From positions 1 to 64,000 of IMG/VR virus record IMGVR_UViG_3300046786_000304: 64,000 nucleotides of DNA, one strand, 5' to 3'. Source of the stretch: a virus. Taxonomy: Duplodnaviria > Caudoviricetes. The notes under the pieces were generated by a model. That model did not search any database. It saw nothing but the letters and a program-made list of their open reading frames with translations, and was not told the origin of the DNA. The position numbers and the translations under genes were made by a program. This document shows, in pieces, positions 2,110 to 27,104 of this stretch. Every line of letters starts with the position of its first letter. The first letter of the stretch is position 1.

Positions 2110-4751
2110 GTTATGTTGACGCAGTTTATGTAAAAGATAAAGACCTTATCAATGTTGTAGAACGAGTCGATGGCGTCAGGAAGTTTAAAAGTTTCCCGGC
2201 ACATTACTTGTTTTATTATCCAGATAATAAAGGTCAATACACAGGCATTGATGGTAAGAGACTGACCAAAGTTGCTGTGGCCAGTAACAAGGCTTTTGAA
2301 AAAGAAAAGCGCATCTATGGACACAAACAACTTTATGAAAGTGATATTAAACCTCTTAATCGTTGTTTAGAAACAAACTATCTAAATGCAGATGCCCCAA
2401 AGCTTAACAAGGCATTTTTTGATATTGAGGTTGCTTACAATAAAGAAAAAGGATTTGCTGACCCCAGCGATCCTTTTAATCCCATTACCGCTATCTCTGT
2501 ACACTGTGGCTGGTTAGACAAACTAATTACGTTAGTTATTAAACCAGAGAAGATGGAACAAGATCAAGCAGAAGCAATCGTTGCTAGATTTGATGATACC
2601 ATTCTTTGCCCAGATGAAGAAGATATGTTAGATACATTTCTAACTATTATTGATGACGCTGATATATTAAGTGGTTGGAATAGCGAGGGCTATGACGTAC
2701 CTTATACAGTTAATAGAATTATTAAACTTATGGGTGCAGAACATACTAAACGATTCTGTTTATGGGGCGGCAAACCTAAAAAACGTGAATACGAAAAGTA
2801 TGGTAAGATCAGTGAGACATATGACTTTGTCGGTCGTGTACACTTAGACTATCTTGACTTGTATCGCAAGTATACCTATCACGAACTTCACACATATCGT
2901 TTAGATTATGTAGGTGAGATTGAGATTGGCGAAACAAAAGTTCACTATGAAGGCACATTAGATCAACTTTATAACAATGACTTTGAAAAGTTTATTGCGT
3001 ATAACAGGCAAGATACTATGTTGCTTTACAAGATGGATGCCAAACTACAATACATTGACTTAGTTAATGTATTGGCACATGCAAACACAGTTACACTACG
3101 CACAACAATGGGCGCGGTGGCTATGACTGACCAAGCGATTATTAACGAAGCTCACGGAAGAGGAGTGATGGTAATGGATCGTAAGCGCGGCGATGGGATT
3201 GAAACACAGGCAGCAGGTGCTTATGTTGCTTATCCCAAAAAAGGAGTTCATGACTGGATTGGATCAATGGACTTGAACAGCCTGTATCCTTCCTTAATTC
3301 GTGCTCTTAACATGAGTCCAGAAACAATCGTTGGACAAATACGTCAACAACAAACTAAACAAGAAATTAAAGAGTGGTTAGCCAAAGGCGAAGGCTTTGC
3401 TGACTATTGGGATGGTAAGTTTGCTGTTCACGAATATGATCATGTCATGTCTAAAAATAAAGGCTATGATGTAATCATTGATTGGGAAGATGGAAGAAGC
3501 ACAGAGATGTCTGCCGCAGAAGCATATGAACTAATTTATCTAAGTGGCAATCCTTGGATGTTAACTGCCAACGGTACAATATTTACTTTTGAAAAGCAGG
3601 GTGTTATTCCTGGCTTGTTGGCACGTTGGTATAGTGAACGTAAAGAGCTTCAAAAGAAAGCTAAGGAAGCATATGGCACTGATATGTTTGAGTATTGGGA
3701 CAAGCGACAACTAGTTAAAAAGATTAATTTGAATTCTTTATATGGTGCTTTGCTTAATGCAGGTTCAAGATTCTTTGACCAACGCATGGGTCAGAGTACA
3801 ACACTATGCGGCAGGCAAGTTGCTAAACACATGGCCAGTCAAGTAAATGAAATGTTTACAGGAGAATATGATCACGTAGGTAAAACTATTATCTATGGTG
3901 ATACTGACTCTTGTTACTTTAGTGCTTATCCAATTTACAAAGAACAAATTGCTCGTAATGAAATCGAATGGACTCGAGATAAAATTATTGAGCTATATGA
4001 TACTGTAGCTGATGAAGTTAATGCCACGTTCCCTGGCTTTATGAACCAAGCATTTAATTGTCCTACTAACTACGGTGAGATTATTAAAGCAGGACGAGAA
4101 GTTGTTGCTAGTAAAGGCTTGTTCATTACTAAAAAGCGTTATGCTGTTCTTATCTATGACAAAGAAGGTAAACGCAAAGACATAGATGGAAGTCTAGGCG
4201 AAATTAAAGCTATGGGTCTTGACTTGAAACGTGCAGATACTCCTGAGTATATGCAAAAGTTTTTAGAAAGTATTTTACTAATGGTACTTAACGGGCAGGA
4301 CAAGCAAGACGTTATTGATGCTATCAATGAATTTAGAACTGAATTCAAAAAGAAGCCTGGATGGGAGAAAGGTACACCCAAGCGTGTTAACAACTTGACA
4401 AAGCATACCGAAGTCTTTAAGAAAACCGGTAAGTGTGGTGTCGGCCATGCGTTAGCATCTATTAATTGGAATAGATTTAAAAAAGCACACAGTGACCAAC
4501 GCAGTATGGACATTACTGATGGTATGAAGGTTATTGTGTGTAAACTAAAATCAAATCCAGCTGGCATCACAAGCATAGCTTATCCAACCGATGAACTTCG
4601 TTTACCAGAATGGTTTAAAGAATTACCTTTTGATAATTCAGCAATGGAATCTACTATTATTGACAATAAAGTGGATAACCTAATTGGAGTTCTTGACTGG
4701 GATATCAGTGCTAGTAATCAAAAAACTAGCTTTGATTTGTTGTTTAGGTAA
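2106..4751 (+). CDS. Family-B DNA polymerase (gp43-like) with 3'-5' exonuclease
   Basis: FFDIE (ExoI), YNRQD (ExoIII), SMDLNSLYPS, KKINLNSLYG, YGDTDS, KKRY. Confidence 0.97.
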   Translation: MSYVDAVYVKDKDLINVVERVDGVRKFKSFPAHYLFYYPDNKGQYTGIDGKRLTKVAVASNKAFEKEKRIYGHKQLYESDIKPLNRCLETNYLNADAPKLNKAFFDIEVAYNKEKGFADPSDPFNPITAISVHCGWLDKLITLVIKPEKMEQDQAEAIVARFDDTILCPDEEDMLDTFLTIIDDADILSGWNSEGYDVPYTVNRIIKLMGAEHTKRFCLWGGKPKKREYEKYGKISETYDFVGRVHLDYLDLYRKYTYHELHTYRLDYVGEIEIGETKVHYEGTLDQLYNNDFEKFIAYNRQDTMLLYKMDAKLQYIDLVNVLAHANTVTLRTTMGAVAMTDQAIINEAHGRGVMVMDRKRGDGIETQAAGAYVAYPKKGVHDWIGSMDLNSLYPSLIRALNMSPETIVGQIRQQQTKQEIKEWLAKGEGFADYWDGKFAVHEYDHVMSKNKGYDVIIDWEDGRSTEMSAAEAYELIYLSGNPWMLTANGTIFTFEKQGVIPGLLARWYSERKELQKKAKEAYGTDMFEYWDKRQLVKKINLNSLYGALLNAGSRFFDQRMGQSTTLCGRQVAKHMASQVNEMFTGEYDHVGKTIIYGDTDSCYFSAYPIYKEQIARNEIEWTRDKIIELYDTVADEVNATFPGFMNQAFNCPTNYGEIIKAGREVVASKGLFITKKRYAVLIYDKEGKRKDIDGSLGEIKAMGLDLKRADTPEYMQKFLESILLMVLNGQDKQDVIDAINEFRTEFKKKPGWEKGTPKRVNNLTKHTEVFKKTGKCGVGHALASINWNRFKKAHSDQRSMDITDGMKVIVCKLKSNPAGITSIAYPTDELRLPEWFKELPFDNSAMESTIIDNKVDNLIGVLDWDISASNQKTSFDLLFR

Positions 4752-4872: not shown

Positions 4873-5622
4873 TTGAAAGACATATTTTTTGACATTGTCA
4901 AGCATACGGCTAGTATTGGCTTTTTTGACTTGGCTAAAATCAATGGGACTGATAAAAAGACAGAAATTAAGGCAGGGGACAAAGGCGGAGATAACTTGTC
5001 TGTTCTGCTTGAAGCTGAACTTAAATCACCAAACAAAGGGCTTGTTGGTGAAATTGGATTTGGAAACTTGAGTGTGCTCAACGGCATTACTAGTTTATAT
5101 AACAAAGACGGTGCAACTGTCAAAGTAGACACAAATGAAGATGGCGTTCCTAGCTATATTCGATTTAGTGATGCCGATGGAAATAACGACAGTTATAGAT
5201 TAATGAACATATCATTAATCGATGATGCGTTACCTGCTGAACCAGCTAACGTTAAATGGGAAATTACTTTTAAACCATCTAAAAGTAAAATTATAGAAAT
5301 GGGTGCAAAAGCTAGCGTGTACTCATCTATTGATCCATTCTTTACTGCAAAAACAATAAGTTCAGATGATGCCAATGATGTTATTTTTACATTTGGTAAT
5401 ATAGCAGATACTCACGGTAAGATGTTGTTTACTGGTGGCGTTAAAAAATCAATGAACGAAAGCATGAGATTTCCAATTGATAAATTTTTATCAATACTTA
5501 AATTGGGTATTGGTGCACCGGATACTAATGTAACTGTGCATTTTAGCCAATTTGCATGTATGATTACTATTGATAATAGTGTCGGTACATATAATTATGT
5601 TTTGTTAGGACATAGAGAATAA
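4873..5622 (+). CDS. Putative sliding clamp/processivity factor (gp45/PCNA-like)
   Basis: 249 aa alpha/beta protein right after the polymerase; size and position fit, no diagnostic motif (inference). Confidence 0.4.
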   Translation: MKDIFFDIVKHTASIGFFDLAKINGTDKKTEIKAGDKGGDNLSVLLEAELKSPNKGLVGEIGFGNLSVLNGITSLYNKDGATVKVDTNEDGVPSYIRFSDADGNNDSYRLMNISLIDDALPAEPANVKWEITFKPSKSKIIEMGAKASVYSSIDPFFTAKTISSDDANDVIFTFGNIADTHGKMLFTGGVKKSMNESMRFPIDKFLSILKLGIGAPDTNVTVHFSQFACMITIDNSVGTYNYVLLGHRE

Positions 5623-5948: not shown

Positions 5949-6214
5949 TGAATGAGAAACAAGCAGATGCAATGTTAAAAAGTCTTAAGAGAATTGAAAG
6001 TTTCCTTGAGGCTATTGATTGGAAGTTATGGAATTTCCATCAAAAGGTTATCGGTGAAGGTACACCTGCTGAAAACGAAACACCAACTAGTGAAGACGAA
6101 GAAACAGAACAGTTGGCTGCTGTTATAGATACGCCAAAGGCAAGACCTGCAAGCGAAACAAAAAAATCAGCGGCTGCTATTCCCGGATATCCAACTATTG
6201 AAAAATGGAATTAA
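5948..6214 (+). CDS. Hypothetical protein with DWKLW motif
   Basis: TAATG coupling, SD AAGGAG; KSLKRIESFLEAIDWKLW. Confidence 0.65.
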   Translation: MNEKQADAMLKSLKRIESFLEAIDWKLWNFHQKVIGEGTPAENETPTSEDEETEQLAAVIDTPKARPASETKKSAAAIPGYPTIEKWN

Positions 6215-6215
6215 A

Positions 6216-6590
6216 ATGAAGAAAATGATTTGGGTTACCTTCCAAAAAGAAGGCATTCACAAATATCCAGCGGCTCTGACTGATCCGAACTTGGCTACAG
6301 GAGATGAATATGATGTTAGCTTTCTTGGCTATCCTCACAGACACATGTTCCATTTTAAAGTAGCTATTGAAGTGTTTCATGATGATCGTGATATTGAATT
6401 TATTCAATTCAAACGCTGGTTGGAAAATCTTTATAAAGGTGCTATACTAGCATTAGATTTTAAAAGTTGCGAAATGATCGCAGAAGATTTGTACACACAA
6501 ATAAATGCTCGCCATCCCGGCAGAGCAGTAACCATAGAAGTAAGTGAGGATGGTGAAAATGGATGCTACATTCAATTTGAACAGAAGTAA
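6216..6590 (+). CDS. QueD-like T-fold protein (DpdL-like LxxxHRHxF motif)
   Basis: LGYPHRHMFHF, SCEMIAEDL, VSEDGENG; start moved to ATG 6216 after the upstream TAA; just upstream of dpdA. Confidence 0.75.
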   Translation: MKKMIWVTFQKEGIHKYPAALTDPNLATGDEYDVSFLGYPHRHMFHFKVAIEVFHDDRDIEFIQFKRWLENLYKGAILALDFKSCEMIAEDLYTQINARHPGRAVTIEVSEDGENGCYIQFEQK

Positions 6591-6600
6591 GGTGCGAACT

Positions 6601-6957
6601 ATGAATCAATATCATAGCAATGTAAGTCGCGCAATGATTAATATCAATGATATTAAATACGACTTGCTAAAAATTGCCGAACTATATGACGGCATTTTAC
6701 AAGAAGGCTTGGGTCACTTGCCTGCAGATATGTTCCAAGCATATCTCAGTGACATGCGAGCCGATCGGTGGATTCACAGCTATGAAATCACCGAAGTTAT
6801 GCTTAAGGAGCATAGCTACACATACGATGTTAGTATTCAAATTACTAATGATCGTACTCCTAAGAAGCTGAAGATTCACGTCGGCTTATACAAGAGTGCA
6901 TGGCCAGACTTGGCGTCTACTATGAAATACAATGGTAGCGGCTATGTCACTAAGTAA
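6601..6957 (+). CDS. Hypothetical protein (118 aa)
   Basis: ATG 6601 follows AAGGTG; fills the gap between the T-fold gene and dpdA. Confidence 0.6.
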   Translation: MNQYHSNVSRAMININDIKYDLLKIAELYDGILQEGLGHLPADMFQAYLSDMRADRWIHSYEITEVMLKEHSYTYDVSIQITNDRTPKKLKIHVGLYKSAWPDLASTMKYNGSGYVTK

Positions 6958-8500
6958 TAAAACTAGAATTGACTTGCAGGCAAGGAACAAAGATTATGCT
7001 GTGTTCCTTCCTAGTATCAGCACGTTCTTTCAAACATTTATTAGTAAACAACAGCACGACAAGTTTGTTCCTGACGAACGTTTGTCGTCCGAGTTTGAAA
7101 CTGGCGTAGAAGGATTTAACTTTCTTAATAAGGAAGATTCTTACTTCTACTATCCAGATGCATTGTATTCTGCAGGACACGCACAATTAGATATTACTAA
7201 AAGTGACGTTGAAGAATCGATGATTCAAAAGCGAGATAGAAAGAATACTTTTATCTTAGGTGACTCGGGTGGATTCCAGATTGGTAAAGGTGTTATTAAC
7301 TTTGACTGGCAGCATTTCTGGGAACAACAAGGCGACAATGGATATGTTGGCACTGCTGATAAAACTAGGATGTCAATCCTTAATTGGCTAGAACATACTG
7401 CTGATTACAGTATGGTGCTTGATATTCCAACTTGGGCTTATGATAAAAACAATGGACCTAGGACCGGATTAAAAAGCTTTAAAGATTGTTTAGATGGAAC
7501 ATTGTTTAACAATGATTTCTTTTTACGCAATCGTAAAGGCCAAACTAAGTTCTTAAATGTGCTACAAGGCGCCAACAATGAGGACGCAGAAGTTTGGTAT
7601 CAAGCTGTTAAAAGTTTACCTTTTGAAGGTTGGGCTATGGGTGGCAATAACATGAAGGACATCAATTTATTGCTACGTCGATTGATTACTATGCGTGATG
7701 AAAAGTTGCTTGAGCCAGGGCGTGATGTTATGCACTTTCTAGGTACCAGTAAACTTGAACTTGCTTGTTTGTTGACTGCTATCCAACGTAACATCAAAGA
7801 ACATGTTAATCCTAACATGAAAGTTACATTTGATTGTGCAAGCCCTTTCTTAGCTACTGCTTATGGTCAAGCTTATACACAACACGTTCACACAAACAAA
7901 CGCTTTAGTTACATTATGGATAAGGCTATTGATGACAGACGCCTTGCTGGTAGTAACACTCCTTGGCCATGGAATAGTCCAATCGGCGAACGCATGACTA
8001 TGGGCGATGTTTGTTATTACAAACCAGGCGATTTGAATAAGTTAGGCAAGGAAGGTAGAACTAGTTGGGATAGCTTTAGTTACTTCTTAATGATGTCGCA
8101 CAATGTTTATCAACACATTGAATCGGTACAACGTGCTAATGCTCTTGTTGACACTGCATGTGCATTACAAAAACCTAATCCAAGTGAGTTTAGTAAATCT
8201 AAAGGCTTTAACGCAGAATTAAGTAATTGGGTTCCCAGGTCTGTCATTTATGGTGTAGAACTTATTAATAGAATTTTTACAAGCGAAACTCCGTTTAGTG
8301 ATTTAGATAAAGCACAAGCATTGTTAGCAGACCTTAATGGTAAGAAAACTTTAAAAACTACGGCAGAAAGTCGTAACGCAGTGTTCAAGTCCAAGACAAC
8401 AGTTCGTCCGGACAAAGGCAATGACAACGACGCCGAAGCGGCCGAATCTTGGGACATTGACCAAGCTGATGAAATCCTCAATGAGGCATTGAATGGCTAA
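6944..8500 (+). CDS. dpdA: DpdA-like DNA deazaguanine transglycosylase (TGT fold)
   Basis: LGDSGGFQIGKG, VLDIP, LNVLQG, GWAMGG, HFLG, TFDCASPF, SHN; no CxCxxC Zn site; FolE/QueE/QueD-like genes in the same region; start 6944 or 6932. Confidence 0.8.
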   Translation: MSLSNKTRIDLQARNKDYAVFLPSISTFFQTFISKQQHDKFVPDERLSSEFETGVEGFNFLNKEDSYFYYPDALYSAGHAQLDITKSDVEESMIQKRDRKNTFILGDSGGFQIGKGVINFDWQHFWEQQGDNGYVGTADKTRMSILNWLEHTADYSMVLDIPTWAYDKNNGPRTGLKSFKDCLDGTLFNNDFFLRNRKGQTKFLNVLQGANNEDAEVWYQAVKSLPFEGWAMGGNNMKDINLLLRRLITMRDEKLLEPGRDVMHFLGTSKLELACLLTAIQRNIKEHVNPNMKVTFDCASPFLATAYGQAYTQHVHTNKRFSYIMDKAIDDRRLAGSNTPWPWNSPIGERMTMGDVCYYKPGDLNKLGKEGRTSWDSFSYFLMMSHNVYQHIESVQRANALVDTACALQKPNPSEFSKSKGFNAELSNWVPRSVIYGVELINRIFTSETPFSDLDKAQALLADLNGKKTLKTTAESRNAVFKSKTTVRPDKGNDNDAEAAESWDIDQADEILNEALNG

Positions 8501-9368
8501 AGCACTTATAATTGGTTTAGGTTTTGGACAGGCTGTATATAAGCCTGTTCTAACAGAACTTGGTTATGAAGTTGTTACTGTTGACATGGATACATCTAAG
8601 GGTGCTGATTTTTCGAACCTAGACGATGCTATTCGTGTCCATGGTAAATTTGATACTGTTAATATTTGCACTCCGAACTTTACGCATATTAAATTGGCAA
8701 GGAAAGTTGCCTCCTTAAGCAAAATTGTTTTTGTCGAAAAGCCGGGAGTTGTTAATAGCGAAGCATGGAAACAACTATGTATTGATTATCCTAATACTCG
8801 TTTTATGATGGTTAAAAATAATCAATACAGAGATTCAATTAAACAATTTAAAGAACTAGCTGACAAAAGCAATATAGTTAAAGTTATTTGGAATAACAAA
8901 AATAGAATTCCAAACCCAGGTAGCTGGTTCACCACAAAAGATTTAGCATTCGGCGGCGTTAGTCGCGACTTAATCCCACACATGTTAAGTTATTATGTGG
9001 CATTGACAGATTACACAAAAGGTAATAAACTATACGCTACTGCATTACAACGACATGAACTCAAGAATATTATTGATACTGATTACGGCAGGGTTGATCA
9101 TAATGGCACTTACAATGTCGACGACTTTTGTGAATTCGAATTCAGCAATCGCAGTACCAAGTGGATATTAAGTGCCAATTGGAAAGACGACAACGCCGAT
9201 GACGTTTATATTAGCTTTGATGATGTTAAGTTTCCATTAGGCTTGTGTCCAGAAGATGCGTATAAAGCAATGATAGAAAATGCTGTTAACAACCTAAATA
9301 ATGATGAGTTCTGGCAAGAACAACTTGCGCAGGATATATGGATCCACAAACAAATAGAAAATTTATGA
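8493..9368 (+). CDS. Gfo/Idh/MocA-family oxidoreductase
   Basis: IIGLGFG Rossmann motif, ICTPNFTH, VFVEKPG. Confidence 0.85.
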   Translation: MAKALIIGLGFGQAVYKPVLTELGYEVVTVDMDTSKGADFSNLDDAIRVHGKFDTVNICTPNFTHIKLARKVASLSKIVFVEKPGVVNSEAWKQLCIDYPNTRFMMVKNNQYRDSIKQFKELADKSNIVKVIWNNKNRIPNPGSWFTTKDLAFGGVSRDLIPHMLSYYVALTDYTKGNKLYATALQRHELKNIIDTDYGRVDHNGTYNVDDFCEFEFSNRSTKWILSANWKDDNADDVYISFDDVKFPLGLCPEDAYKAMIENAVNNLNNDEFWQEQLAQDIWIHKQIENL

Positions 9369-10528
9369 ATTTTCAATACATAGCACGAAATACTCTTGCA
9401 GGTATTACAACAAGTCTTGCTATGGTGCCAGAAGTTGTTGCTTTTGCCTTATTAGCGCATGTTAATCCACTAGTTGGTTTGTATGCCGCAGTTATACTAG
9501 GATTAGTTACGGCCTTATTTGGCGGACGTCCTGGACTTATTAGCGGTGGTGCAGGCAGTCTTGCAGTAGTTAGTGTAGCATTGGTTGTTACACATGGCGT
9601 TGAATATTTGTTTGCTTGTATTGTACTCATGGGCATTATACAATTTGCCTTTGGAGCATTTAAACTTGGTAAACTAATTAAACTAGTTAGTCCCAGTGTA
9701 ATGACTGGGTTTGTTAACGGGCTTGCGCTGGTAATTTTCCTAGCACAATTTAAGCAAATTCCTTTTCAAGGATGGGCGTTATATTCAATGCTAGGATTAA
9801 TTGGTATAACCATTGCAGGCGTAGTAATGGCTCCGTCAATTACCAAACACATTCCTTCTAGCTTATTTGGTATTGTAGCTGTGACCGCCGTTGTGTATTT
9901 GTTTGATATAACAACTACTACTGTAGGTGATATTGCACATATTAGCGGAGCACTACCTAGCTTCCATATTCCCGATGTTCCTATGACTCTAGAAACATTA
10001 TGGATTGTATTGCCTTATAGTTTTATACTTGCCGCAGTAGGATTAATTGAAACTTTGTTAACTGCCAGCCTAGTCGACGACTTTGTGCATGAACACAAGC
10101 CAGATCATAAAACACATCCCAACAAAGAAAGTATGGCTCAGGGCGTCGGTAACATACTAACTGGTTTGTTTGGTGGTATGGGTGGTTGTGCTATGATCGG
10201 ACAAACTGTTATCAACTTAGAAGCAGGCGGCGTTAATAGATTGGCAGGGGTCATAGAAGCATTGGCTATCCTTGCTTACATTGTATTTGCTAGTATTGTA
10301 ATAGAATCCATTCCAATAGCCGCTTTGATTGGTGTGATGTGCGTTGTATGCTATCATACCTTCGATTGGAATAGTTTAAAATTTAACAATAAACCAAAAG
10401 AAGATGTTATAGTTATGTTGACCGTTACTGTAACCACAGTTATATTCAATCTTGCTCTTGCCGTTTTATTAGGCATTTTACTAACAAGTATGTTATACTA
10501 TTGGAAACACGTTAAAGAAACAACATGA
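9365..10528 (+). CDS. sulP: SulP/SLC26-family anion transporter without STAS domain
   Basis: GITTSLAMVPEVVAFA, GLYAA, FGGRPGLISGGAGS, LIETLLT, ESMAQGVGN, GGCAMIGQT; ends right after the last TM; ATGA overlap at 9365. Confidence 0.85.
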   Translation: MNFQYIARNTLAGITTSLAMVPEVVAFALLAHVNPLVGLYAAVILGLVTALFGGRPGLISGGAGSLAVVSVALVVTHGVEYLFACIVLMGIIQFAFGAFKLGKLIKLVSPSVMTGFVNGLALVIFLAQFKQIPFQGWALYSMLGLIGITIAGVVMAPSITKHIPSSLFGIVAVTAVVYLFDITTTTVGDIAHISGALPSFHIPDVPMTLETLWIVLPYSFILAAVGLIETLLTASLVDDFVHEHKPDHKTHPNKESMAQGVGNILTGLFGGMGGCAMIGQTVINLEAGGVNRLAGVIEALAILAYIVFASIVIESIPIAALIGVMCVVCYHTFDWNSLKFNNKPKEDVIVMLTVTVTTVIFNLALAVLLGILLTSMLYYWKHVKETT

Positions 10529-11430
10529 CAAGAATATTACAGACGATCGGAGATGGCAATTTTGTAGAAACTACTTGGGATAATCCAGATTGTGGTGACT
10601 ACGAAATTACTGTACAAAATATCATGACAGGCGTTTGTCGTAGTGATATTGACATGATGGAAGGCAATTTCGGTCCATTGCCATTAAGTATGCAAGGACA
10701 CGAAGGACTGGGTCGTGTAATTAAAGTTGGTAAAAATATTGGTATGACACAAGTAGGGGACATAGTAGCCACTCGTGGCGAACCTGCTTATGCAGATGTG
10801 TACAATGTTAGAGCCAATGAATATGTAGTTGTTCCAGAAGCACATCCTAGATATATTTTAGAACCAGTAGCCTGTGGTATCAATGTAGTACAACAACCTA
10901 TTAGAGAAATGGCCGAACGAGCAGGCGAAGGTAAAAAACTACTAATACTTGGTAGCGGATTCCTTGCGTGGGTTGCTTACAATACTATCTTGCTTAATCA
11001 CTTAGAGTTTGATATCACAGTTGTGGGCAATAGTAACAAAGAACTTTGGAAAGAAACTTTAAGTCAAAACTATGAAGGTACATTCGATGTAGTTATTGAT
11101 TTGAGCAGTAGACAAGATGTTTTTGAGAAACCCATTCTAAATAATGAAGCGTTAGTAGTATTTGGAAGTCAAAAACAAGTTAGCACAGATTTCTCTAATT
11201 TACTTTGGAAAGCCTGTACTATGATATTCCCAAGTCCAAGAACTGACAGATTTTATCAGTGTATGCAAGATGCCGCTATGTGGATTGAAAGCGGTGATAT
11301 TGATGTTGACATGTTCTGGACAAAAGGTTATAATAGAGACTCAGAGTGGCAACAAGCATTTGCTGATGGCTTAAATAGACCTGCAGGTTATAGCAGGGGT
11401 TACATATATTGGAATAATAATGGCAATTGA
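10525..11430 (+). CDS. MDR/zinc-type alcohol (polyol/sugar) dehydrogenase-like protein
   Basis: GVCRSD, GHEGLG.V..VG, LEPVACG, LILGSGFL; structural-Zn loop absent. Confidence 0.8.
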   Translation: MTRILQTIGDGNFVETTWDNPDCGDYEITVQNIMTGVCRSDIDMMEGNFGPLPLSMQGHEGLGRVIKVGKNIGMTQVGDIVATRGEPAYADVYNVRANEYVVVPEAHPRYILEPVACGINVVQQPIREMAERAGEGKKLLILGSGFLAWVAYNTILLNHLEFDITVVGNSNKELWKETLSQNYEGTFDVVIDLSSRQDVFEKPILNNEALVVFGSQKQVSTDFSNLLWKACTMIFPSPRTDRFYQCMQDAAMWIESGDIDVDMFWTKGYNRDSEWQQAFADGLNRPAGYSRGYIYWNNNGN

Positions 11431-11953
11431 TACAATGGGCCGAAAGGCAACAACTTATTTTATTGGTACAGAAGTAGAGCGTACTGCTATGTATGGCGAA
11501 CGCACTCTATTTGTTGTAGGTGTTCAACCCGTAGACAAAATTGTAAGTATTATTAACGAACAAAACTCTTATAATGATACTAGCAAACATATTAGACATA
11601 TCTATCTTGGCACTAGTCAAAGTTTTACTCCTCAGGATTACGATGACTGGAAAGCTTGGGATAAAATGATTGTAGAGTTATTGGATGCTGGCTACTGGGT
11701 CACACTTGACTTTGGTGTAGAGTATGCCGATACCTTCAATGAAGAAGGATGGAGTGAGTACAACACATTCATTCCTATGATTAGTGTTAAACTTCCTTAC
11801 ATTAAACTTTACAATTACAATGCCACACTAAAGATTGATGATACAACGTGGGGTCATAGTAATCCAGGCGTGTGGTGCCATAGCTTACACGACTTAATGG
11901 ATAGAAAAGTTTATACGGACTGGAAGGATTATGTAGGAGATGAAAATGTCTAA
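11420..11953 (+). CDS. Hypothetical protein coupled to the GT-B gene
   Basis: Overlaps both neighbours; HIYLGTSQSF, WVTLDF, NPGVWCH. Confidence 0.75.
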   Translation: MAIDTMGRKATTYFIGTEVERTAMYGERTLFVVGVQPVDKIVSIINEQNSYNDTSKHIRHIYLGTSQSFTPQDYDDWKAWDKMIVELLDAGYWVTLDFGVEYADTFNEEGWSEYNTFIPMISVKLPYIKLYNYNATLKIDDTTWGHSNPGVWCHSLHDLMDRKVYTDWKDYVGDENV

Positions 11954-13004
11954 AATCTTTTTAGTTGATTTAGAAGCAGTTAGCACTCGCTATACTGGAC
12001 AGTGGAAAGATCATGTTCCACAATTACTTAGAGAGGTAGGACACGATGTTCAAATTATTTCTGGCCCTGAAGATATTCCTAATGCCACTACTCCTGGCGC
12101 TTTTCTTAATTTTGGCGGTACTAACATATATAAGTCGGCTCAAGTTGAACAGATGGGTCGTTTATTTTGCGACGGAGCCGTTTCTCCCGGTGATCACTTT
12201 ATCTTTACTGATGCTTGGCACCCGGGTATCATAAACTTAAAGTACATGAGTGAACTATTAGGTATTCCAGTAGTTACACATGGTTTATGGCATGCCGGAA
12301 GTTATGATCCTCAAGACTTTCTCGGACGCTTAGTTGGTGATAAGCCGTGGGTTAGACACGCAGAGAAAAGTTACTTCCATGCATTTGATCATAACTACTT
12401 TGCCACAGACTTTCACATTGATATGTTTTCTAATAACTTGTTTCATGATGAGACAGTAGAATTAGAAGATAACAAAGTTGTACGTACTGGTTGGCCTATG
12501 GAGTATATGAATGATACTCTTAAACCATTTAAGAATTTGAATAAACAAGATCTTATCGTGTTCCCGCATCGTATCGCCCCTGAGAAACAAGTTGAAATCT
12601 TTCGCGACCTAGCAACACACTTGCCACAATACAAGTTTGTCGTTTGTCAAGATGAACAATTAACTAAAAAACAATATCACACATTGTTAGGTCAAGCTAA
12701 GATGGTGTTTAGTTGTAGTTTACAGGAAACGCTAGGCATTGGTTGTTACGAAGGTGCTATAGTGGATGCTATCCCAATGGTGCCAGATAGACTAAGCTAC
12801 AGTGAAATGTACTTTGATGTGTTCAAATATAAAAGTGAGTGGACAGAGTCTTGGGAAGCCTACAATGTTTATCGTCCAGACTTGTGTCGTGCTATTATGA
12901 CACATATGGATTATTACCATACTCGCTTGAGACAACTCAAAGAACAAGCATCTAGCTTAACGACACATTTCTTTAGTGCGAAAGACTTATTAAAGAATCT
13001 ATGA
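11946..13004 (+). CDS. GT-B (GT4-like) glycosyltransferase
   Basis: FPHRIAPEKQ and ETLGIGCYE (EX7E) donor-binding motifs; SD AGGAGA before ATG 11946. Confidence 0.8.
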   Translation: MSKIFLVDLEAVSTRYTGQWKDHVPQLLREVGHDVQIISGPEDIPNATTPGAFLNFGGTNIYKSAQVEQMGRLFCDGAVSPGDHFIFTDAWHPGIINLKYMSELLGIPVVTHGLWHAGSYDPQDFLGRLVGDKPWVRHAEKSYFHAFDHNYFATDFHIDMFSNNLFHDETVELEDNKVVRTGWPMEYMNDTLKPFKNLNKQDLIVFPHRIAPEKQVEIFRDLATHLPQYKFVVCQDEQLTKKQYHTLLGQAKMVFSCSLQETLGIGCYEGAIVDAIPMVPDRLSYSEMYFDVFKYKSEWTESWEAYNVYRPDLCRAIMTHMDYYHTRLRQLKEQASSLTTHFFSAKDLLKNL

Positions 13005-13447
13005 CTTATGTTGGATATTTTTTAACATGGACATTTGTGCTGTACTGGATACATCGTATAGGACATAAAACTCCGTATGTTAAAAAATGGCACTGGGACC
13101 ATCATAGCTATATAGTTAGGCACGGGATGCAGGGTTGGCATTGGAATAATTTATTTTTATTCAACGACACTTGGATTAGTACATTAGATCTATACGTAAC
13201 AGAAGTTATACCTACTATATTGTTTAGCTGGATAACAGGAGAATGGTGGGTTTTTGCATTTTATTATATATGGGCATCTTACTTCCAAGAAACACTGGAA
13301 CATAATAAAACTGTAGACTTTCCACTGTTAACGACTGGTCGTTGGCATCTAATACATCACAGACACCCAAACAAAAATTACGGATTGTTTTTCCCTATAT
13401 GGGATATATTATTTGGAACTTACAAACGTGTGGACCAGCGAAAATAA
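13001..13447 (+). CDS. Sterol desaturase/fatty-acid hydroxylase superfamily membrane protein
   Basis: His boxes HRIGH, HWDHH, HLIHH; NYGLFFPIWDILFGT. Confidence 0.85.
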   Translation: MTYVGYFLTWTFVLYWIHRIGHKTPYVKKWHWDHHSYIVRHGMQGWHWNNLFLFNDTWISTLDLYVTEVIPTILFSWITGEWWVFAFYYIWASYFQETLEHNKTVDFPLLTTGRWHLIHHRHPNKNYGLFFPIWDILFGTYKRVDQRK

Positions 13448-14333
13448 TTGGTACAAGTGGTGGTACGGCGATGCCTTATTTGGTAGGCAAACCAATGACT
13501 TAAAATGGAATACCAGTTATAAATGTAACAATGTTCGCCACGTAGGTTCTTTCAAAGAAGAAATGTTAGTGGCGGCTCGAAGCACTATGGATCATTACTC
13601 GGGCCTAAAACCCTGCGTGTTTTTTAGTGGCGGATTAGATAGCGAGTTAGTTCTACGTTCTTATATTGATATAGGTGCAGATCCTATTGTAAACATTTTT
13701 AGATTTGAAAATCATATCAATGAATATGACGTAAGCTATGCTATTGTCATCTGCGAAACATTAGGTGTAAAGTATAACGTTATTGATTTTAATATAGCAA
13801 ACTTCTATGAACATGATGCAGAAACTATCAGTGATATAGCACAGATAGACAGACCGCGTGGTTTGCCGCAATTAAAGTTTTTGGATTATACAGAAGGATT
13901 TGCCGTTCTGGGTATCGGCGATCCACGCTGGACTCGTAGTGTAAAAGATAACACTCCTTGGATACTATTGGACCAGGAACACGATACTGGTTGGGACAAA
14001 TATATTCTACATAAAAATATGCCTGCTATTGCTCAATGGTTTAAATGGACGCCTGAGTTGGTATTAGCATACACAGAACTTGATTGGTTTAAAAATCTTG
14101 TTATAAACAATAAATGGACTGGCAGAGAAGGCGTAACGTCAACTAAGATTATAGGTTACCGAGAAGCATATCCTGATTTATTACAACGAGACAAAAAAAC
14201 TGGCATGGAACCCGTTGACAGTTTGATTGATGAATTTGAAGACTTTTTGAAAAAGAAAAACAACGGACTACTATATAGGCAAGTAGTACCAAGAACGTTA
14301 GATGAACTAAGGAAAGAAATATTAAATGATTAA
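13413..14333 (+). CDS. PP-loop (adenine-nucleotide alpha-hydrolase) protein
   Basis: VFFSGGLDSE PP-loop; no QueC Cys cluster; start may be GTG 13428. Confidence 0.65.
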   Translation: MELTNVWTSENNWYKWWYGDALFGRQTNDLKWNTSYKCNNVRHVGSFKEEMLVAARSTMDHYSGLKPCVFFSGGLDSELVLRSYIDIGADPIVNIFRFENHINEYDVSYAIVICETLGVKYNVIDFNIANFYEHDAETISDIAQIDRPRGLPQLKFLDYTEGFAVLGIGDPRWTRSVKDNTPWILLDQEHDTGWDKYILHKNMPAIAQWFKWTPELVLAYTELDWFKNLVINNKWTGREGVTSTKIIGYREAYPDLLQRDKKTGMEPVDSLIDEFEDFLKKKNNGLLYRQVVPRTLDELRKEILND

Positions 14334-14676
14334 AATAGAAAGTTATGGATCAAGTCCAGGATGGTATCAAACTGATACCAGTTACAATCTACCAAGTATA
14401 ACAGGTGCTGTTCAATGGAATGGTGCTACTAAATGTTTTGAAGTTAGTAATGGTAGTAGTTGGCAACGAATAGACAATACTATTCGAATTAATAATAGTA
14501 ATGCCTATGATATAAATGTTGTCGGTGCGTGGGTAATGAAAAAGATGGCCGAGGAAGAAGAAACTAAGAAACTTCGTAGTAAATACCCAGCACTAGATGA
14601 AGCATACAATCACTTGGAACTAATCAAAGCATTAGTTACAGCAGGACCAGAAACAAATGATATTCAACAAAGTTAA
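14326..14676 (+). CDS. Hypothetical protein
   Basis: Coupled ORF; SD AAGGA upstream. Confidence 0.65.
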   Translation: MIKIESYGSSPGWYQTDTSYNLPSITGAVQWNGATKCFEVSNGSSWQRIDNTIRINNSNAYDINVVGAWVMKKMAEEEETKKLRSKYPALDEAYNHLELIKALVTAGPETNDIQQS

Positions 14677-15127
14677 AGATTTAAAAGCCAAAGGACTAAA
14701 GATAGGGATTACCTTTAGTACATTTGACTTACTACATGCCGGGCATATTGCTATGCTAGCAGAAGCAAAGAATCATTGCGATTACTTAATTGCTGGCCTT
14801 CAAACAGATCCTACTATTGATAGACCCGAAAGTAAAAACCCGCCAGTACAAAGTATTGTTGAACGACAAATACAATTGGCAGCTACTCGCTATGTCGATG
14901 AAACTGTAGTATATCAAACTGAAAAAGATCTTGAAGATATTCTACTTACATTACCCATCGATGTTCGTATACTAGGTGTCGAATATCAGGATAAAGAATT
15001 TACTGGCAGAGATATTTGTTATGAGAGAGGCATCGAATTAGTATTCAATCAACGCGATCATAGCTTTAGTTCTAGCAATCTACGCAAACGTGTGGCTCAC
15101 GCAGAAATGGTCAAGGAATTAAAATGA
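14657..15127 (+). CDS. Glycerol-3-phosphate cytidylyltransferase-like protein (TagD type)
   Basis: STFDLLHAGH, GLQTDP, RDHSFSSS. Confidence 0.85.
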   Translation: MIFNKVKDLKAKGLKIGITFSTFDLLHAGHIAMLAEAKNHCDYLIAGLQTDPTIDRPESKNPPVQSIVERQIQLAATRYVDETVVYQTEKDLEDILLTLPIDVRILGVEYQDKEFTGRDICYERGIELVFNQRDHSFSSSNLRKRVAHAEMVKELK

Positions 15128-15912
15128 AAACAAAAGTAGCAATTATCGGAATGGGTTTTGTCGGAGGTGCTATACATAGTTCTTTTGTCAGTAACGCAGA
15201 TGTAGAACTATTAGCCATAGATCCAGCCAAGGGTTGGCTGGCAACATACAATGACATCGTAAACTTTGATGCAGTATTTGTCTGTGTACCAAGTCCACAG
15301 CGTAGCGATGGATCTTGTGATACCAGCATATTAGTTGATGTATTAAAGCAGTTGGAATTGGTGCGTTTTAGCGGTGTTATTATTAGTAAAGTCACTGCTA
15401 TTCCAAGTGTATATACAGGACTACAAACTTCATATCCTAACTTAGTTCATGCTCCTGAGTTCTTAACTGCGGCCAATGCTGAACGAGATTATGCCAATGG
15501 CAGATTTTCTATCATCGGCGGCGAAGTAACCGCATATAGAAACGAAGCCGAACGTATTATTAGAATGAGCCAGCCAAATCTAAATTCAGTAACACATTGT
15601 AGTATTGGCGAAGCCAGCTTTGCCAAATATACTATCAATACCTTCCTTGCTACTAAAGTTATCTTTATGAATGAAATGGCCAAGCTAGCGGAAGATAATC
15701 AATGTAATTGGAATAATATTAAACAAGCCGTTAGTCAAGATAAACGACTTGGCGCCAGTCATATGCAAGTGCCTGGGCCAGATGGCGATTATGGGTTTGG
15801 TGGAATGTGCTTTCCAAAAGACACTAATGCCATGCTTAAATTTGCAGAATGGTGTGAACAGGACCTAAGTGTATTGGCCACGGCAGTTGCAAAGAATAAT
15901 AAAATTCGATGA
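15124..15912 (+). CDS. UDP-glucose/GDP-mannose dehydrogenase family (short form)
   Basis: IIGMGFVG, FVCVPSP, PEFL, KYTINTFLATKVIFMNE, GFGGMCFPKD. Confidence 0.85.
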   Translation: MKTKVAIIGMGFVGGAIHSSFVSNADVELLAIDPAKGWLATYNDIVNFDAVFVCVPSPQRSDGSCDTSILVDVLKQLELVRFSGVIISKVTAIPSVYTGLQTSYPNLVHAPEFLTAANAERDYANGRFSIIGGEVTAYRNEAERIIRMSQPNLNSVTHCSIGEASFAKYTINTFLATKVIFMNEMAKLAEDNQCNWNNIKQAVSQDKRLGASHMQVPGPDGDYGFGGMCFPKDTNAMLKFAEWCEQDLSVLATAVAKNNKIR

Positions 15913-16655
15913 ATAACCCATTTAAATTATTGATAACTGGCGGTTGTTCGTTTACTGCCAACAAATGCTGGCCTTACCATCTTAATAAGATATTATCCGA
16001 CAATGAACTTATAAACTATGGGTTAATTAGTTCAGGCAACGGAAGAATAAGTAGGTCTGTTATATATGGTGTAAGCCAAGCACTTAAGACACATTCTCCG
16101 GAAGAAATATTAGTGGGCATTATGTGGAGTCATCCTAGTCGCTATGATGTGTTTAAAGAAAATATTGATGCTGGTACGTTTACTAATACGTCAGATGATA
16201 TTAACCCAAATAAATTTATTCCTAACGCAGATAAGAATTGGTTATTAATACACAGTGGGTGGGATGACATACATTCTAAAAACTATTATTCATATTTTTA
16301 TGATGACATTGGCAATCATATTACTACGTTAGAACATATTCTTAGAGTGCAATGGTTTTTAAAATTACATAACATAAATTATTTTATGAGCACCTATTCT
16401 ACTGGTGTTCTTCCTGATCAGGAAATGAAAAATAATCCAAATATAAGTCACTTGTATGACATGGTAGATTGGTCTAAATTTTTGCCAGTTGATAGTTGTC
16501 TAGAATGGACAGAAAATTGCAGTATACCCAATGACGCAAGCGAACTAGAAAAACCATTTTATATGCGGCACCCATCGGATAACCAACACAAAGAATTCGC
16601 AGAAAAAGTTGTATATCCTTTCATAAAATCTAAATATTTTGTTGACAAGACCTAA
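15909..16655 (+). CDS. SGNH/GDSL-like protein
   Basis: GGCSFT block I, SSGNGRI block II, C-terminal RHPS...H. Confidence 0.65.
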   Translation: MNNPFKLLITGGCSFTANKCWPYHLNKILSDNELINYGLISSGNGRISRSVIYGVSQALKTHSPEEILVGIMWSHPSRYDVFKENIDAGTFTNTSDDINPNKFIPNADKNWLLIHSGWDDIHSKNYYSYFYDDIGNHITTLEHILRVQWFLKLHNINYFMSTYSTGVLPDQEMKNNPNISHLYDMVDWSKFLPVDSCLEWTENCSIPNDASELEKPFYMRHPSDNQHKEFAEKVVYPFIKSKYFVDKT

Positions 16656-16670
16656 ATAAACCTATATAAT
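16642..16670 (+). promoter_or_regulatory. Composite promoter TTGACA-N17-TATAAT with CCTAAATA in the spacer
   Basis: ttgacaagacctaaataaacctatataat; SD AAGGAG then ATG 16689. Confidence 0.75.
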
Positions 16671-16688: not shown

Positions 16689-17453
16689 ATGACTGAATCC
16701 GTATTATACAAAAATATCATAGCTGGCGCAGAACAGCAAGGCGATGATGATAAGAGCTACGAAGAAGCTTACTTAGGAAACTATCTTCGTGCTAAAATGA
16801 AACGCGACAATAAACGTTTCTGGGCAGGTGATAACATTAGTGAATATGTTAACGACCATAACAAGGAACAACTAATCGACGAAGCAACAGAAGCATTTGA
16901 ACTAGTGCTTGATCGTTTGCTTATTGATCGTGAAAACGATCCTAATAGTAAAGGTACTGCGAGACGACTTGCTAAAATGTACTTTAATGAAATTATGGCA
17001 GGAAGATATGAACCAGGACCAGACGCTACAGCGTTTCCAAATGATTCGGCGGACCGTTACGAAGGTATGTTGGTTGTTCGCAGTGAGCTTCGTAGCATGT
17101 GCAGTCATCATCACCAGCCCGTTAGTGGCGTTGCTTATATTGGTATTATCGCTGCCGAGAAGCTCATCGGTCTCTCTAAGTACACACGCATCGCGCAGTG
17201 GTGTGCGAGACGAGGTACTCTCCAGGAGGAACTTTGCAATGACATTGCTAGGGAAATATCAAAAGCAACCAACTCGGAGAACGTAGCAGTTTATATTCAA
17301 GCAGTACATGGTTGCTGTGAGAACCGTGGCATTATGGCGCATAGTAGTTTAACACAGACTACAGTACTCACAGGATCGTTTAAAACTGATCCAGGTGCAA
17401 AGAAAGAATTCTTTGACAACATCAAACTACAACAGGAGTTTGCTCCTCGATGA
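16689..17453 (+). CDS. folE: GTP cyclohydrolase I
   Basis: TARRLAKMY, SMCSHHHQP, GLSKYTRI, LQEEL, HGCCENRG. Confidence 0.95.
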   Translation: MTESVLYKNIIAGAEQQGDDDKSYEEAYLGNYLRAKMKRDNKRFWAGDNISEYVNDHNKEQLIDEATEAFELVLDRLLIDRENDPNSKGTARRLAKMYFNEIMAGRYEPGPDATAFPNDSADRYEGMLVVRSELRSMCSHHHQPVSGVAYIGIIAAEKLIGLSKYTRIAQWCARRGTLQEELCNDIAREISKATNSENVAVYIQAVHGCCENRGIMAHSSLTQTTVLTGSFKTDPGAKKEFFDNIKLQQEFAPR

Positions 17454-17641
17454 AAGATCCTGTAATAGAAGAAAAAGTCACAGTACTAAAAGACTTGGTT
17501 GATGATATTAATATTCTGATGAAAGATCTACAGGACTTAAATGTAGAAGTTAGAATTGCTTATATCGACAAGAATACTGATAAAGACATTTCACAGGGTA
17601 TTAGTCTTTGGAAAGTAGAAGAGCGTAATGGCTACCTCTAA
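17450..17641 (+). CDS. Hypothetical protein
   Basis: ATGA coupling to folE. Confidence 0.55.
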   Translation: MKDPVIEEKVTVLKDLVDDINILMKDLQDLNVEVRIAYIDKNTDKDISQGISLWKVEERNGYL

Positions 17642-17996
17642 TCCAGGATATGGTGCTATACCGCCATCATCACCTTACACTATTGGCGCTCAAGGAGCAA
17701 GTGGGCAGGTCCTAACTGCCAATGGTATGAATGGTACTAGTTGGATGAGTCAGGGTATTAACACACAGCCAAGTGCTATTCAAATTGGCACTCCTGAACC
17801 CACTATTACATTTCACCACAATGGTGATATAACAACTAAAGCAGGAACTATTACCGCAGAAGATTGGGTATCTGTTATTAAAGTTATGAAACAGTTAATC
17901 ATGGATATGAGCAAAGATCAGGAACTAGCATCTAAATATCCGTATATACAAGATGCGGCACATACTTGGATGATGAACAAACTCAAAGGAGAATGA
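17628..17996 (+). CDS. Hypothetical protein
   Basis: Overlapping ORF that fills the gap. Confidence 0.6.
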   Translation: MATSNPGYGAIPPSSPYTIGAQGASGQVLTANGMNGTSWMSQGINTQPSAIQIGTPEPTITFHHNGDITTKAGTITAEDWVSVIKVMKQLIMDMSKDQELASKYPYIQDAAHTWMMNKLKGE

Positions 17997-17997: not shown

Positions 17998-18510
17998 ATG
18001 GCATGGTACACAGTAAGAACACATTATAAAAAGAGTTGCGAACAACACGAATATTTTTACAATCGTAAAATTAAAGGTGCTAGGATTATTGTTAAAGACG
18101 GTTATCGAAGTGCAGAGTTTAGTGTGGAAACTAATGATGACGAATTTCCTGAATTTAATTTTACTAATTGTCCAGGTGGCAGTGCTGACCTTGATAGCGT
18201 TGACTTGTTTAGTTGCTTTGGTGATAACGTTGAAAATACAGAACTTGTCGAAATGTTTGACGGCGGTTGCTGGGGCGATATTGAAATTGAAGGTATCGAA
18301 GATGAAGATGAAGTCGAACGTTTGACAGACCTTATCAATGAAGAAGGCAGTTACGCATTAGAAGAAGATGGCGACGGTGACTGGTACCTAAGCGATACAG
18401 AATGTTGGGTATGGGGTCCAATTGAGGTTGAAGATGAAGAAGGTAATGTACGGATTATTGTTGCAGACGAAGATGGTAATATGATTGACTTTGAGGGCGA
18501 CGATGAGTAA
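17998..18510 (+). CDS. Highly acidic hypothetical protein (paralog 1)
   Basis: SD AAGGAG; D/E-rich; aligns by eye with 18503..19012. Confidence 0.7.
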   Translation: MAWYTVRTHYKKSCEQHEYFYNRKIKGARIIVKDGYRSAEFSVETNDDEFPEFNFTNCPGGSADLDSVDLFSCFGDNVENTELVEMFDGGCWGDIEIEGIEDEDEVERLTDLINEEGSYALEEDGDGDWYLSDTECWVWGPIEVEDEEGNVRIIVADEDGNMIDFEGDDE

Positions 18511-19012
18511 AGTATATCTAATCAAACCGCTAGAAAAGAAAAGCATTGTCTACCATGTAGAGATGTTTCGTGAAAACGCAGACGGCTCTGTCAGTTGGTT
18601 TAACATTGACGAAACATATCGTTGGGGACAGGGCTTTATTGAAGAAGATATGGACTGTAATCTTCCATGGCAAGATGATACAATAGCATATTGTAAATCT
18701 GATGTTGGTTGGGGCTGTGAGTTTGATGATAGTATTAGCATTGAGTTTGAATTCAGTGATGACTTGTCTGAAGATGAACAACAAGAAATTAAAGACGCAT
18801 ACTACGAAGGCGGAGCGGGTTGGCTTTATGATGGAGAACACAACTGGTTGGAAGAAGATTGTGTTGTTCTTGTATATGGGCCTTATCAAGTAAGCTTATG
18901 TGATGAGCTTACTGGTGAAGTAATTGAAGAGAATGTTAAACTAAAACCAAGGCCAGAACCAAGTAATGTCTGGCCGTTTGATTTTCCAAAAGACAGCGAA
19001 CAAGGAGGCTGA
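18503..19012 (+). CDS. Highly acidic hypothetical protein (paralog 2)
   Basis: Start moved to ATG 18503 (overlaps the upstream stop); KKS...YRWG...GP pattern. Confidence 0.7.
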   Translation: MSKVYLIKPLEKKSIVYHVEMFRENADGSVSWFNIDETYRWGQGFIEEDMDCNLPWQDDTIAYCKSDVGWGCEFDDSISIEFEFSDDLSEDEQQEIKDAYYEGGAGWLYDGEHNWLEEDCVVLVYGPYQVSLCDELTGEVIEENVKLKPRPEPSNVWPFDFPKDSEQGG

Positions 19013-26773: not shown

Positions 26774-26808
26774 TATTTATTGACACAAATTGGTTTTGGT
26801 GCTATAAT
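26774..26808. promoter_or_regulatory. Back-to-back promoters: minus-strand TAAATA (26774-26779) abutting plus-strand TTGACA-N17-TATAAT (26780-26808)
   Basis: tatttaTTGACAcaaattggttttggtgcTATAAT. Confidence 0.75.
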
Positions 26809-26813
26809 ACAGC

Positions 26814-27073: not shown

Positions 27074-27104
27074 ATATACATAGCGTAACAAAAAGGAGCA
27101 AAGA

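Follow-up and report, generated by a model that had tools for sequence, protein, structure and literature searches.

To our knowledge, the glycosylations described in phage DNA lie on pyrimidines (5-hydroxymethylcytosine, hmC, and 5-hydroxymethyluracil, hmU), and the known 7-deazaguanine modifications of DNA carry small groups only. The one phage with proven 2'-deoxy-7-deazaguanine (dDG) is Cellulophaga phage phiST, whose system consists of FolE, QueD, QueE, DpdL, and DpdA3 (PMC10516641). DpdL, recognized by the signature LxxxHRHxF, was proposed as the 7-carboxy-7-deazaguanine (CDG) decarboxylase behind dDG (Cui, Hutinet et al., NAR 2023, PMC10516641), and heterologous DpdL and DpdA of Acidovorax phage ACP17 yielded no dDG (PMC10516641). 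The DNA of Pseudomonas phage PA5oct is refractory to restriction enzymes that cut at G-containing sites, and END nucleases, whose targets are hypermodified DNAs, sense it (PMC12191111). In animals, tRNA queuosine is glycosylated by QTMAN and QTGAL after insertion by tRNA-guanine transglycosylase (TGT) (PMC12518689). Here, a locus is described in IMG/VR record IMGVR_UViG_3300046786_000304, from an uncultured jumbo phage of fresh water, a relative of PA5oct, in which a gene for a DpdA-like transglycosylase is followed by genes for a 177-aa protein (u177) and a GT-B glycosyltransferase and preceded by dpdL. The window analyzed is the first 64 kb of this 233-kb record (~65% complete; 37% G+C); coordinates are those of the window, and features are on the plus strand unless stated otherwise. 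From gene content and structural models, it is predicted, with a probability of roughly 0.55, that 7-deazaguanine replaces G in the DNA and is glycosylated, with sugar-tailoring genes added in this lineage.

The transglycosylase (6932-8500, 522 aa) was assigned as a DpdA-like DNA-guanine transglycosylase from a predicted TGT fold, invariant motifs, and homology to a PA5oct protein. No match was obtained in Pfam, PHROGs, or NCBIfam (E 0.01-0.1), including PF01702 (TGT) and PF20314 (DpdA4/DUF6610), or among PDB sequences, even with a 16-member family profile. The AlphaFold model (pLDDT 80) matched TGT in Foldseek with an E value of 2e-8 and a probability of 1.00, and comparison with TGT by VIA gave a Z score of 19.6 with ~300 residues aligned and an rmsd of 4.6; the TGT-type (beta/alpha)8 barrel is present in the model. 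The name dpdA in the initial annotation therefore has no backing from sequence families and is backed by the fold of the predicted model. In an alignment of 16 sequences reaching down to 49% identity, D111 (GDSGGxQ), D164 (LDxP), and D301 (FDCASP) are invariant, and we take these to be the catalytic aspartates, equivalent to D102, D156, and D280 of Z. mobilis TGT. The DSGG segment and the YDS/FDC segment were paired by hhalign with ACP17 DpdA. The canonical TGT zinc site (CxCxxC...H) is absent from the alignment, in which C186 and C361 are the only invariant cysteines; since this site is structural in TGT, its absence points to a divergent subfamily and not to loss of activity. The protein is 37% identical to PA5oct EST35_0316, and its hhalign probability was 63% against ACP17 DpdA and 9% against phiST DpdA3, a remoteness that indicates a distinct, PA5oct-type subfamily of the TGT superfamily.

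The 354-aa protein at 11940-13004 was assigned as a GT4-like GT-B glycosyltransferase from its predicted fold and conserved motifs. Pfam at E 0.01, including Glycos_transf_1 and Glyco_trans_4, gave no match, and a family profile against PDB sequences gave only a marginal match to WlaC (6eji; E 0.039). The AlphaFold model (pLDDT 84) has the two-Rossmann-domain GT-B fold, with GT4 and GT5 enzymes as its neighbors (glycogen synthase, BshA, PimB', and MshA; Foldseek E 2e-9 to 1e-8, TM 0.6-0.67), and a TM score of 0.87 to the ACP17 homologue. Across 16 sequences, including a subtype at 21% identity, R211, E215, K216, and Q217 in FPHRIAPEKQ are invariant, among them the R/K pair expected to bind the donor diphosphate, as is the motif Q262-(E/D)-x7-E271 of the C-terminal domain. 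From motifs and model, the protein looks like an active enzyme, and its original designation as a GT-B glycosyltransferase is upheld by the predicted fold and the intact E-x7-E motif.

Eighty related viral contigs were fetched, and hidden Markov model counts were made on the 62 loci in which 3 kb or more of sequence follows dpdA; association of FolE, DpdL, and QueE was counted within 10 kb. The GT-B gene was present in all 62 relatives, u177 in 61, and DpdL in 61, followed by FolE (55/62), a phosphoribosyltransferase (PRTase, 38/62), QueE (35/62), a nucleotidyltransferase (33/62), a UDP-glucose dehydrogenase (UGDH)-like protein (23/62), and GalE (22/62). A Gfo/Idh/MocA-type oxidoreductase (Gfo) and a medium-chain dehydrogenase/reductase (MDR) were found in 18 of the 62 each, invariably together. 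The relatives share a phylogeny, so that counts of the 62/62 type are not independent events, and it is the cross-lineage cases that carry weight. GalE, which scores above the equivalog cut-off (297 bits), follows only a divergent GT-B type, and this tie to a GT-B subtype supports a link between the GT-B and the supply of a sugar donor. A synteny check set beforehand asked whether the GT-B and 177-aa genes co-occur with dpdA in relatives, which they do (62/62 and 61/62). The initial annotation had drawn an oxidoreductase pair and the other genes of the run into its proposal that the inserted deazapurine, or another base, receives a sugar or polyol. Of this, the linkage of GT-B and u177 holds; the Gfo/MDR pair accompanies dpdA in only 18 of the 62 relatives, and the genes for SulP, the hydroxylase, the PP-loop protein, and DUF6071 (see below) are sporadic and lineage-specific, so that the run as a whole does not form a single conserved pathway.

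Clustering of open reading frames (ORFs) gave the ancestral order polB, p12062, dpdA, u177, DpdL, g6544, GT-B, variable sugar genes, FolE, PRTase, HIT, and QueE. As judged from gene order, the clade of the window is one in which DpdL and g6544 were relocated upstream of dpdA and dpdA was separated from u177 by insertion of a Gfo(-SulP)-MDR block. The conserved basic protein g6544 (6544-6957, 137 aa, pI 9.0) has no family match and occurs in 45 of the 62 relatives, mostly between DpdL and GT-B.

The same association is found well outside these relatives. In seven lineages of cultured phages (PA5oct-like, Phosso, ACP17, X1, BUDD, BCSR5, and BUCT-ZZ01), whose members have at least two DpdA subfamilies, the GT-B gene adjoins DpdL or a DpdA. 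In Sinorhizobium phage Phosso, DpdL (150428-150784) is followed directly by GT-B (150805-151881), and in ACP17 the cluster comprises u177, DpdA, GT-B, DpdL, and QueE, with QueD and FolE bringing the set to seven genes; the other cultured carriers are Xanthomonas phages X1 and BUDD, Burkholderia phage BCSR5, and Synechococcus phage BUCT-ZZ01. When bacterial and archaeal genomes, metagenome-assembled genomes included, were scanned with a GT-B profile, 26 loci were obtained. In 25 of them a DpdA-like gene, DpdL, or both lie within 6 kb of GT-B; the sole exception (L102) is a contig of 4.6 kb on which GT-B is accompanied by FolE alone. The DpdA-like/GT-B pair occurs in isolates of the Alphaproteobacteria (Pelagibacterium, Devosia, Ochrobactrum, Azospirillum, Methylobacterium, and Roseobacter), where integrase, VapE, and endonuclease I genes nearby place the pairs in integrated elements. 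In Ochrobactrum sp. MYb379 (L111, 4049-7047), a Vut_1 (YhhQ-type) transporter gene, of what we take to be the queuosine-precursor transporter family, lies between the DpdA-like gene and GT-B, and in Methylobacterium sp. NFXW15 (L117, 3587-7065) the two are accompanied by a 201-aa uncharacterized protein and DpdL. From their gene content, these alphaproteobacterial modules may represent the same modification in bacterial or prophage form.

The near-universal partner of the DpdA-like protein, u177 (11420-11953), gave nothing useful in sequence-family searches (Pfam, PHROGs, NCBIfam, and PDB sequences and profiles), and protein-atlas feature similarities of 0.80-0.89 provided leads only. Its metagenomic homologues form 3207 clusters at 90% identity and 799 at 50%, with no Pfam domain in any of the 3207. 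The homologue in PA5oct is at 252640-253131, and that of ACP17 adjoins DpdA. About one-sixth of the listed representatives, including the long homologues P0159, P0177, P0193, and P0226, have a disordered C-terminal extension of 100-180 aa that ends in a lysine-rich tail; neither a known domain in the extensions nor a fusion to DpdL or g6544 was found in the long homologues.

Genes for synthesis of the base flank this module. DpdL (6198-6590), a QueD paralogue and proposed CDG decarboxylase, was assigned by signature and homology: it contains LGYPHRHMF, which fits the DpdL signature at the site where QueD has CxxxHGH, matches phrog_17812 (E 2e-36), and in tblastn is 57% identical (E 2e-37) to an ACP17 sequence and 36% identical (E 2e-11) to phiST CGPG_00067. 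The earlier gene list, sound for the genes of the run, had overlooked it. Downstream lie GTP cyclohydrolase I (FolE, 16689-17453; PF01227, 133 bits), the first step to 7-deazaguanines, a QueE-like radical-SAM CDG synthase (19556-20416; phrog_2076, E 1e-52), and an S-adenosylmethionine (SAM) synthetase (20757-21857; all three MetK domains, 112-195 bits), which by its family would supply SAM to QueE and to the many radical-SAM genes. In the whole 233-kb record, ~65% complete, neither QueC above cut-off nor a canonical QueD or Pfam PTPS domain was found, and tblastn with the PRTase, HIT, and QueD of relatives gave only one weak PRTase-like match at ~212 kb. With DpdL present, no QueC above cut-off, and no PTPS/QueD, the expected base is a dDG-type 7-deazaguanine and not preQ0. 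Between folE and queE lie two adjacent acidic proteins (17998-18510, 170 aa; 18485-19012, 175 aa) with a pI of 4.05 and 49 and 40 Asp+Glu residues, respectively, at the place where relatives hold a guanine/xanthine phosphoribosyltransferase and a HIT protein. Neither has a family match; their composition suggests a DNA mimic with a possible anti-restriction role.

In the proposed pathway, FolE and QueE would, by homology, lead to CDG, the QueD step coming from the host or from an unrecognized gene, and DpdL would convert CDG to 7-deazaguanine, as proposed in the literature. The DpdA-like enzyme, by homology of its TGT fold, would then exchange guanine in phage DNA for 7-deazaguanine, and the GT-B enzyme would transfer a sugar from a nucleoside diphosphate (NDP)-sugar to the deazaguanine, which at that point might still be a free base or already be part of the DNA; u177 presumably takes part as well. 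More speculatively, the Gfo/MDR pair, a truncated sugar 6-dehydrogenase, an RfaE/TagD-like enzyme, a PP-loop amidoligase, and a di-iron hydroxylase might make or tailor the sugar, in place of which sister lineages carry GalE beside a different GT-B subtype. The purine that results would bear a sugar decoration specific to the lineage and would protect the DNA against nucleases of the host. A bolder version, whose chances we put slightly below even, is that the group that includes PA5oct, ACP17, Phosso, X1, and BUCT-ZZ01 replaces G by glycosylated 7-deazaguanine, the first sugar-bearing purine in any DNA, and that in the phage of the window the attached sugar is oxidized to a uronic acid by a dehydrogenase without a UDP-binding domain and amidated by the PP-loop enzyme. 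Of the literature searches, one on DpdL yielded nothing beyond PMC10516641, and none found a paper describing glycosylated deazaguanine in DNA, in agreement with the initial view that such a sugar-decorated deazapurine would be an uncharacterized class of modification.

Several points weigh against glycosylation of the inserted base. 7-Deazaguanine has no obvious hydroxyl group for O-glycosylation; for this reason the sugar might be joined by an unusual C- or N-glycosidic bond. Plain dDG is made in phiST with DpdL and without a GT-B. The nearest solved structures to the GT-B enzyme act on small molecules, and its family is acidic (median pI 5.5), which does not indicate a DNA substrate; as an indicator of this kind, pI proved uninformative, the DpdA-like protein being acidic too. 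As membrane proteins, SulP and the di-iron hydroxylase suit envelope chemistry better than DNA chemistry, and most accessory genes are sporadic among the relatives. To these are added the shared phylogeny of the 62 loci and the lack of recognizable QueC and QueD noted above.

Part of this evidence is what would be expected if the DNA held plain 7-deazaguanine, such as dDG, and the GT-B and sugar genes, merely placed in the early replication region, acted on envelope glycans, lipids, or virion proteins. The membrane nature of SulP and of the hydroxylase, the sporadic accessory genes, the presence of a second large sugar/radical-SAM array at 34.9-64 kb, and the small-molecule or glycolipid GT4 enzymes nearest to the GT-B structure all fit such a role. 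We nevertheless regard it as improbable, though it survives better than the other alternatives: GT-B is present in 62/62 relatives, is a neighbor of DpdL or DpdA in seven lineages of cultured phages that are unrelated to one another, and occurs in minimal alphaproteobacterial modules of two to four genes without other sugar or envelope genes.

A little less probable again is the transfer of the sugar to a soluble intermediate or cofactor, a pterin or the free deazapurine, as by the cyanobacterial tetrahydrobiopterin glucosyltransferase, so that the sugar would never enter DNA and would serve as a transient handle or as a storage or detoxified form. Tetrahydrobiopterin glucosyltransferases (9v0l and 5zer) are among the Foldseek matches of GT-B (E ~1e-6), DpdL, its closest partner, belongs to the pterin-type T-fold proteins, and the acidity of the GT-B family points the same way; however, BshA, MshA, and glycogen synthase outscore the pterin enzymes, and in Alphaproteobacteria the GT-B is paired with a DpdA-like gene alone, with no FolE, QueE, or DpdL nearby. 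Two further explanations have very little probability. Decoration of another base, such as a hydroxymethyl pyrimidine as in T-even phages, by a GT-B merely co-located with the deazaguanine genes would agree with the established glucosylation of hmC by the T4 GT-B enzymes and with the early position beside the DNA polymerase, but no ThyA-like hydroxymethylase, the source of such an acceptor, was found in the 233-kb record (~65% complete), and the minimal ACP17, X1, and bacterial modules have no such enzyme. A non-catalytic or regulatory role of GT-B as a partner of the transglycosylase, in the manner of DpdB for bacterial DpdA, would explain the strict pairing with a DpdA and the failure of heterologous ACP17 DpdL and DpdA to make dDG (PMC10516641), but is at odds with donor-binding and catalytic motifs that are invariant across the family and with sugar-nucleotide genes, such as GalE, that co-vary with the GT-B subtype.

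The window begins with a plus-strand early/replication region comprising a family-B DNA polymerase (PolB, 2106-4751), a phrog_12062 protein (4873-5622), and small genes, after which comes the gene run. Megablast of the region against phage records gave no match. The run consists of 12 unbroken plus-strand ORFs (6932-16655), each overlapping the next by 4-35 nt, and its description as an unbroken run of overlapping genes from named families was confirmed by the ORF map and family searches. Its former limits (6944-15912) are too narrow for the module, which extends upstream to DpdL and downstream to DUF6071, FolE, and QueE. Nor does the run behave as one simple operon: perfect sigma-70 consensus promoters (TTGACA-17-TATAAT) lie at 11306-11334, within the 3' end of the MDR gene and 86 nt ahead of the gene for u177, and at 16642-16670, in front of folE. 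Seven perfect TTGACA-N17-TATAAT sites were observed in the window, with 0.17 expected; the other five, at 26780-30938, each start with TTGACACAA. From their sequences, the seven look like a family of strong early promoters for host RNA polymerase. Those at 11306 and 16642 would divide the run into early transcription units, and the early-type promoter at 11306 would drive the block from u177 and GT-B through DUF6071. Short identical contigs of one metatranscriptome library span several run genes, which is no proof of transcription.

Between dpdA and u177, the run holds a Gfo/Idh/MocA-type NAD(P) oxidoreductase (8493-9368; PF01408 N-terminal domain, 35 bits), a SulP-family anion transporter core (9338-10528; PF00916, 158 bits; 11 hydrophobic segments), and an MDR (zinc alcohol dehydrogenase-like) oxidoreductase (10525-11430; ADH_N, 39 bits). 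The SulP protein, 396 aa long, has no match to a STAS domain, and its gene occurs in only 2 of the 80 related loci. A contig of the metatranscriptome library joins 9368 to 10558, omitting exactly this gene, and so represents a near relative without it. At the other end of the run, the DUF6071 protein (15909-16655; PF19547, 52 bits) had no match in any related locus and, among the loci compared, is confined to this phage. Recent insertion as a passenger is the most likely origin of both the SulP and the DUF6071 gene.

Directly after GT-B lies a small membrane-type di-iron hydroxylase/desaturase (13001-13447; FA_hydroxylase PF04116, 57 bits) with the histidine boxes HRIGH, HWDHH, and HLIHHRH, found in 6 related loci only. 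It overlaps the gene of a stand-alone PP-loop amidoligase-like protein (13413-14333, start probably at 13428) of the asparagine synthetase/QueC-like type with an SGGLDS loop, which is present in six to seven related loci. This is the sole PP-loop protein of the record; it scored 17-18 bits against QueC (cut-off 22) over the SGGLDS region only and had a protein-atlas feature similarity of 0.98 to viral Asn_synthase/QueC-like clusters. Its 303 homologues, none of them named, lie mostly on small metagenome contigs. The gene is restricted to loci with the UGDH-like dehydrogenase, which, as a speculation, fits amidation of a uronate. That dehydrogenase (15124-15912) is a truncated nucleotide-sugar dehydrogenase with PF03721 and PF00984 only, scoring 121 bits against TIGR03026 (cut-off 190), of whose 413 model positions it spans 73-295. 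Both the Rossmann GxGxxG and the catalytic-cysteine motif GGMCFPKD are retained, and the C-terminal UDP-binding domain is missing, a form of 258-307 aa that is kept in 23 of the 62 relatives; lacking this domain, the enzyme may act on a sugar no longer bound to a nucleotide.

Preceding it is a cytidylyl/adenylyl-transferase of the RfaE domain II/TagD-like type (14657-15127; PF01467, 41 bits; phrog_7878, E 2e-31), which scored 80 bits against TIGR02199, under the cut-off. ADP-heptose chemistry, considered from this RfaE-II-like gene together with a short-chain dehydrogenase/reductase, was rejected for the relatives, whose short-chain dehydrogenase/reductase is the GalE equivalog. A second nucleotidyltransferase paralogue (434-853, 139 aa) clusters with that at 14657-15127; the versions in relatives are 255-293 aa long and lie upstream of polB. 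The 116-aa protein at 14326-14676 has no match in Pfam, PHROGs, or NCBIfam and is kept in 12 close relatives; it shares a similar C-terminal segment (...SKYPxxxxAxxH...) with a 122-aa protein at 17628-17996, and from this segment the two may be paralogues.

Farther downstream, 34885-63976 is occupied by a ~30-kb array of translationally coupled genes, mostly on the minus strand, that includes at least five radical-SAM enzymes (one SPASM), a carbamoyltransferase, and an NAD epimerase/dehydratase. By its gene content, this is a second, separate sugar/radical-SAM pathway.

If the predicted glycosylated 7-deazaguanine is present, DNA bases would gain a new chemical class, the deazapurine with a sugar attached. 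As with T-even glucosylation, consequences would be expected for restriction, for CRISPR, and for nucleases that sense modification. The sugar would, moreover, explain the absent product when DpdL and DpdA alone are expressed in E. coli. The variable donor and tailoring genes (GalE versus Gfo/MDR/UGDH-like/PP-loop) suggest that the sugar has diversified in an arms race. The gene set is abundant in metagenomes, the group is widespread in freshwater, marine, and soil environments, and the module is carried by already cultured phages, among them the therapy candidate PA5oct.

Of the known systems, that of phiST is similar in combining FolE, QueE, DpdL, and a transglycosylase of the TGT superfamily beside replication genes, without QueC. 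It differs in that the transglycosylase of the window belongs to another, much larger subfamily (522 aa), that GT-B and u177, absent from phiST, are integral to the module, and that the record has extra sugar-tailoring genes and no canonical QueD that was found. PA5oct (Wroclawvirus) has the order PolB, structural protein, DpdA-like protein (37% identity), GT-B (44%), and DpdL (60%), then QueE, but it lacks the Gfo, SulP, MDR, hydroxylase, PP-loop, nucleotidyltransferase, UGDH-like, and DUF6071 genes, and its 177-aa homologue is ~28 kb away. The bacterial Dpd system (DpdA/DpdB/DpdC; PMC10164549) likewise uses a TGT-family enzyme to put 7-deazaguanine into DNA, and DpdA-like/GT-B pairs related to those described here also occur on bacterial chromosomes, in integrated mobile elements; the partner of the transglycosylase here is, however, a glycosyltransferase, and DpdB-like (ParB/ATPase) and DpdC-like families had no match among the window genes scanned (2.1-21.9 kb). 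The alpha- and beta-glucosyltransferases of T4 resemble the GT-B in being early phage enzymes of ~350 aa and GT-B fold, with a sugar that varies by lineage and that is here presumed to go onto a non-canonical base. They were not among the 50 best PDB structure matches of the GT-B, whose fold neighbors are GT4/GT5 enzymes, and the acceptor here would be a purine analogue and not 5-hydroxymethylcytosine, with no hydroxymethylase. The nearest precedent for a glycosylated 7-deazaguanine derivative in a nucleic acid is the work of QTMAN and QTGAL, in which the sugar is placed on the cyclopentenediol hydroxyls of queuosine in tRNA, whereas here it would probably be carried by plain 7-deazaguanine in DNA.

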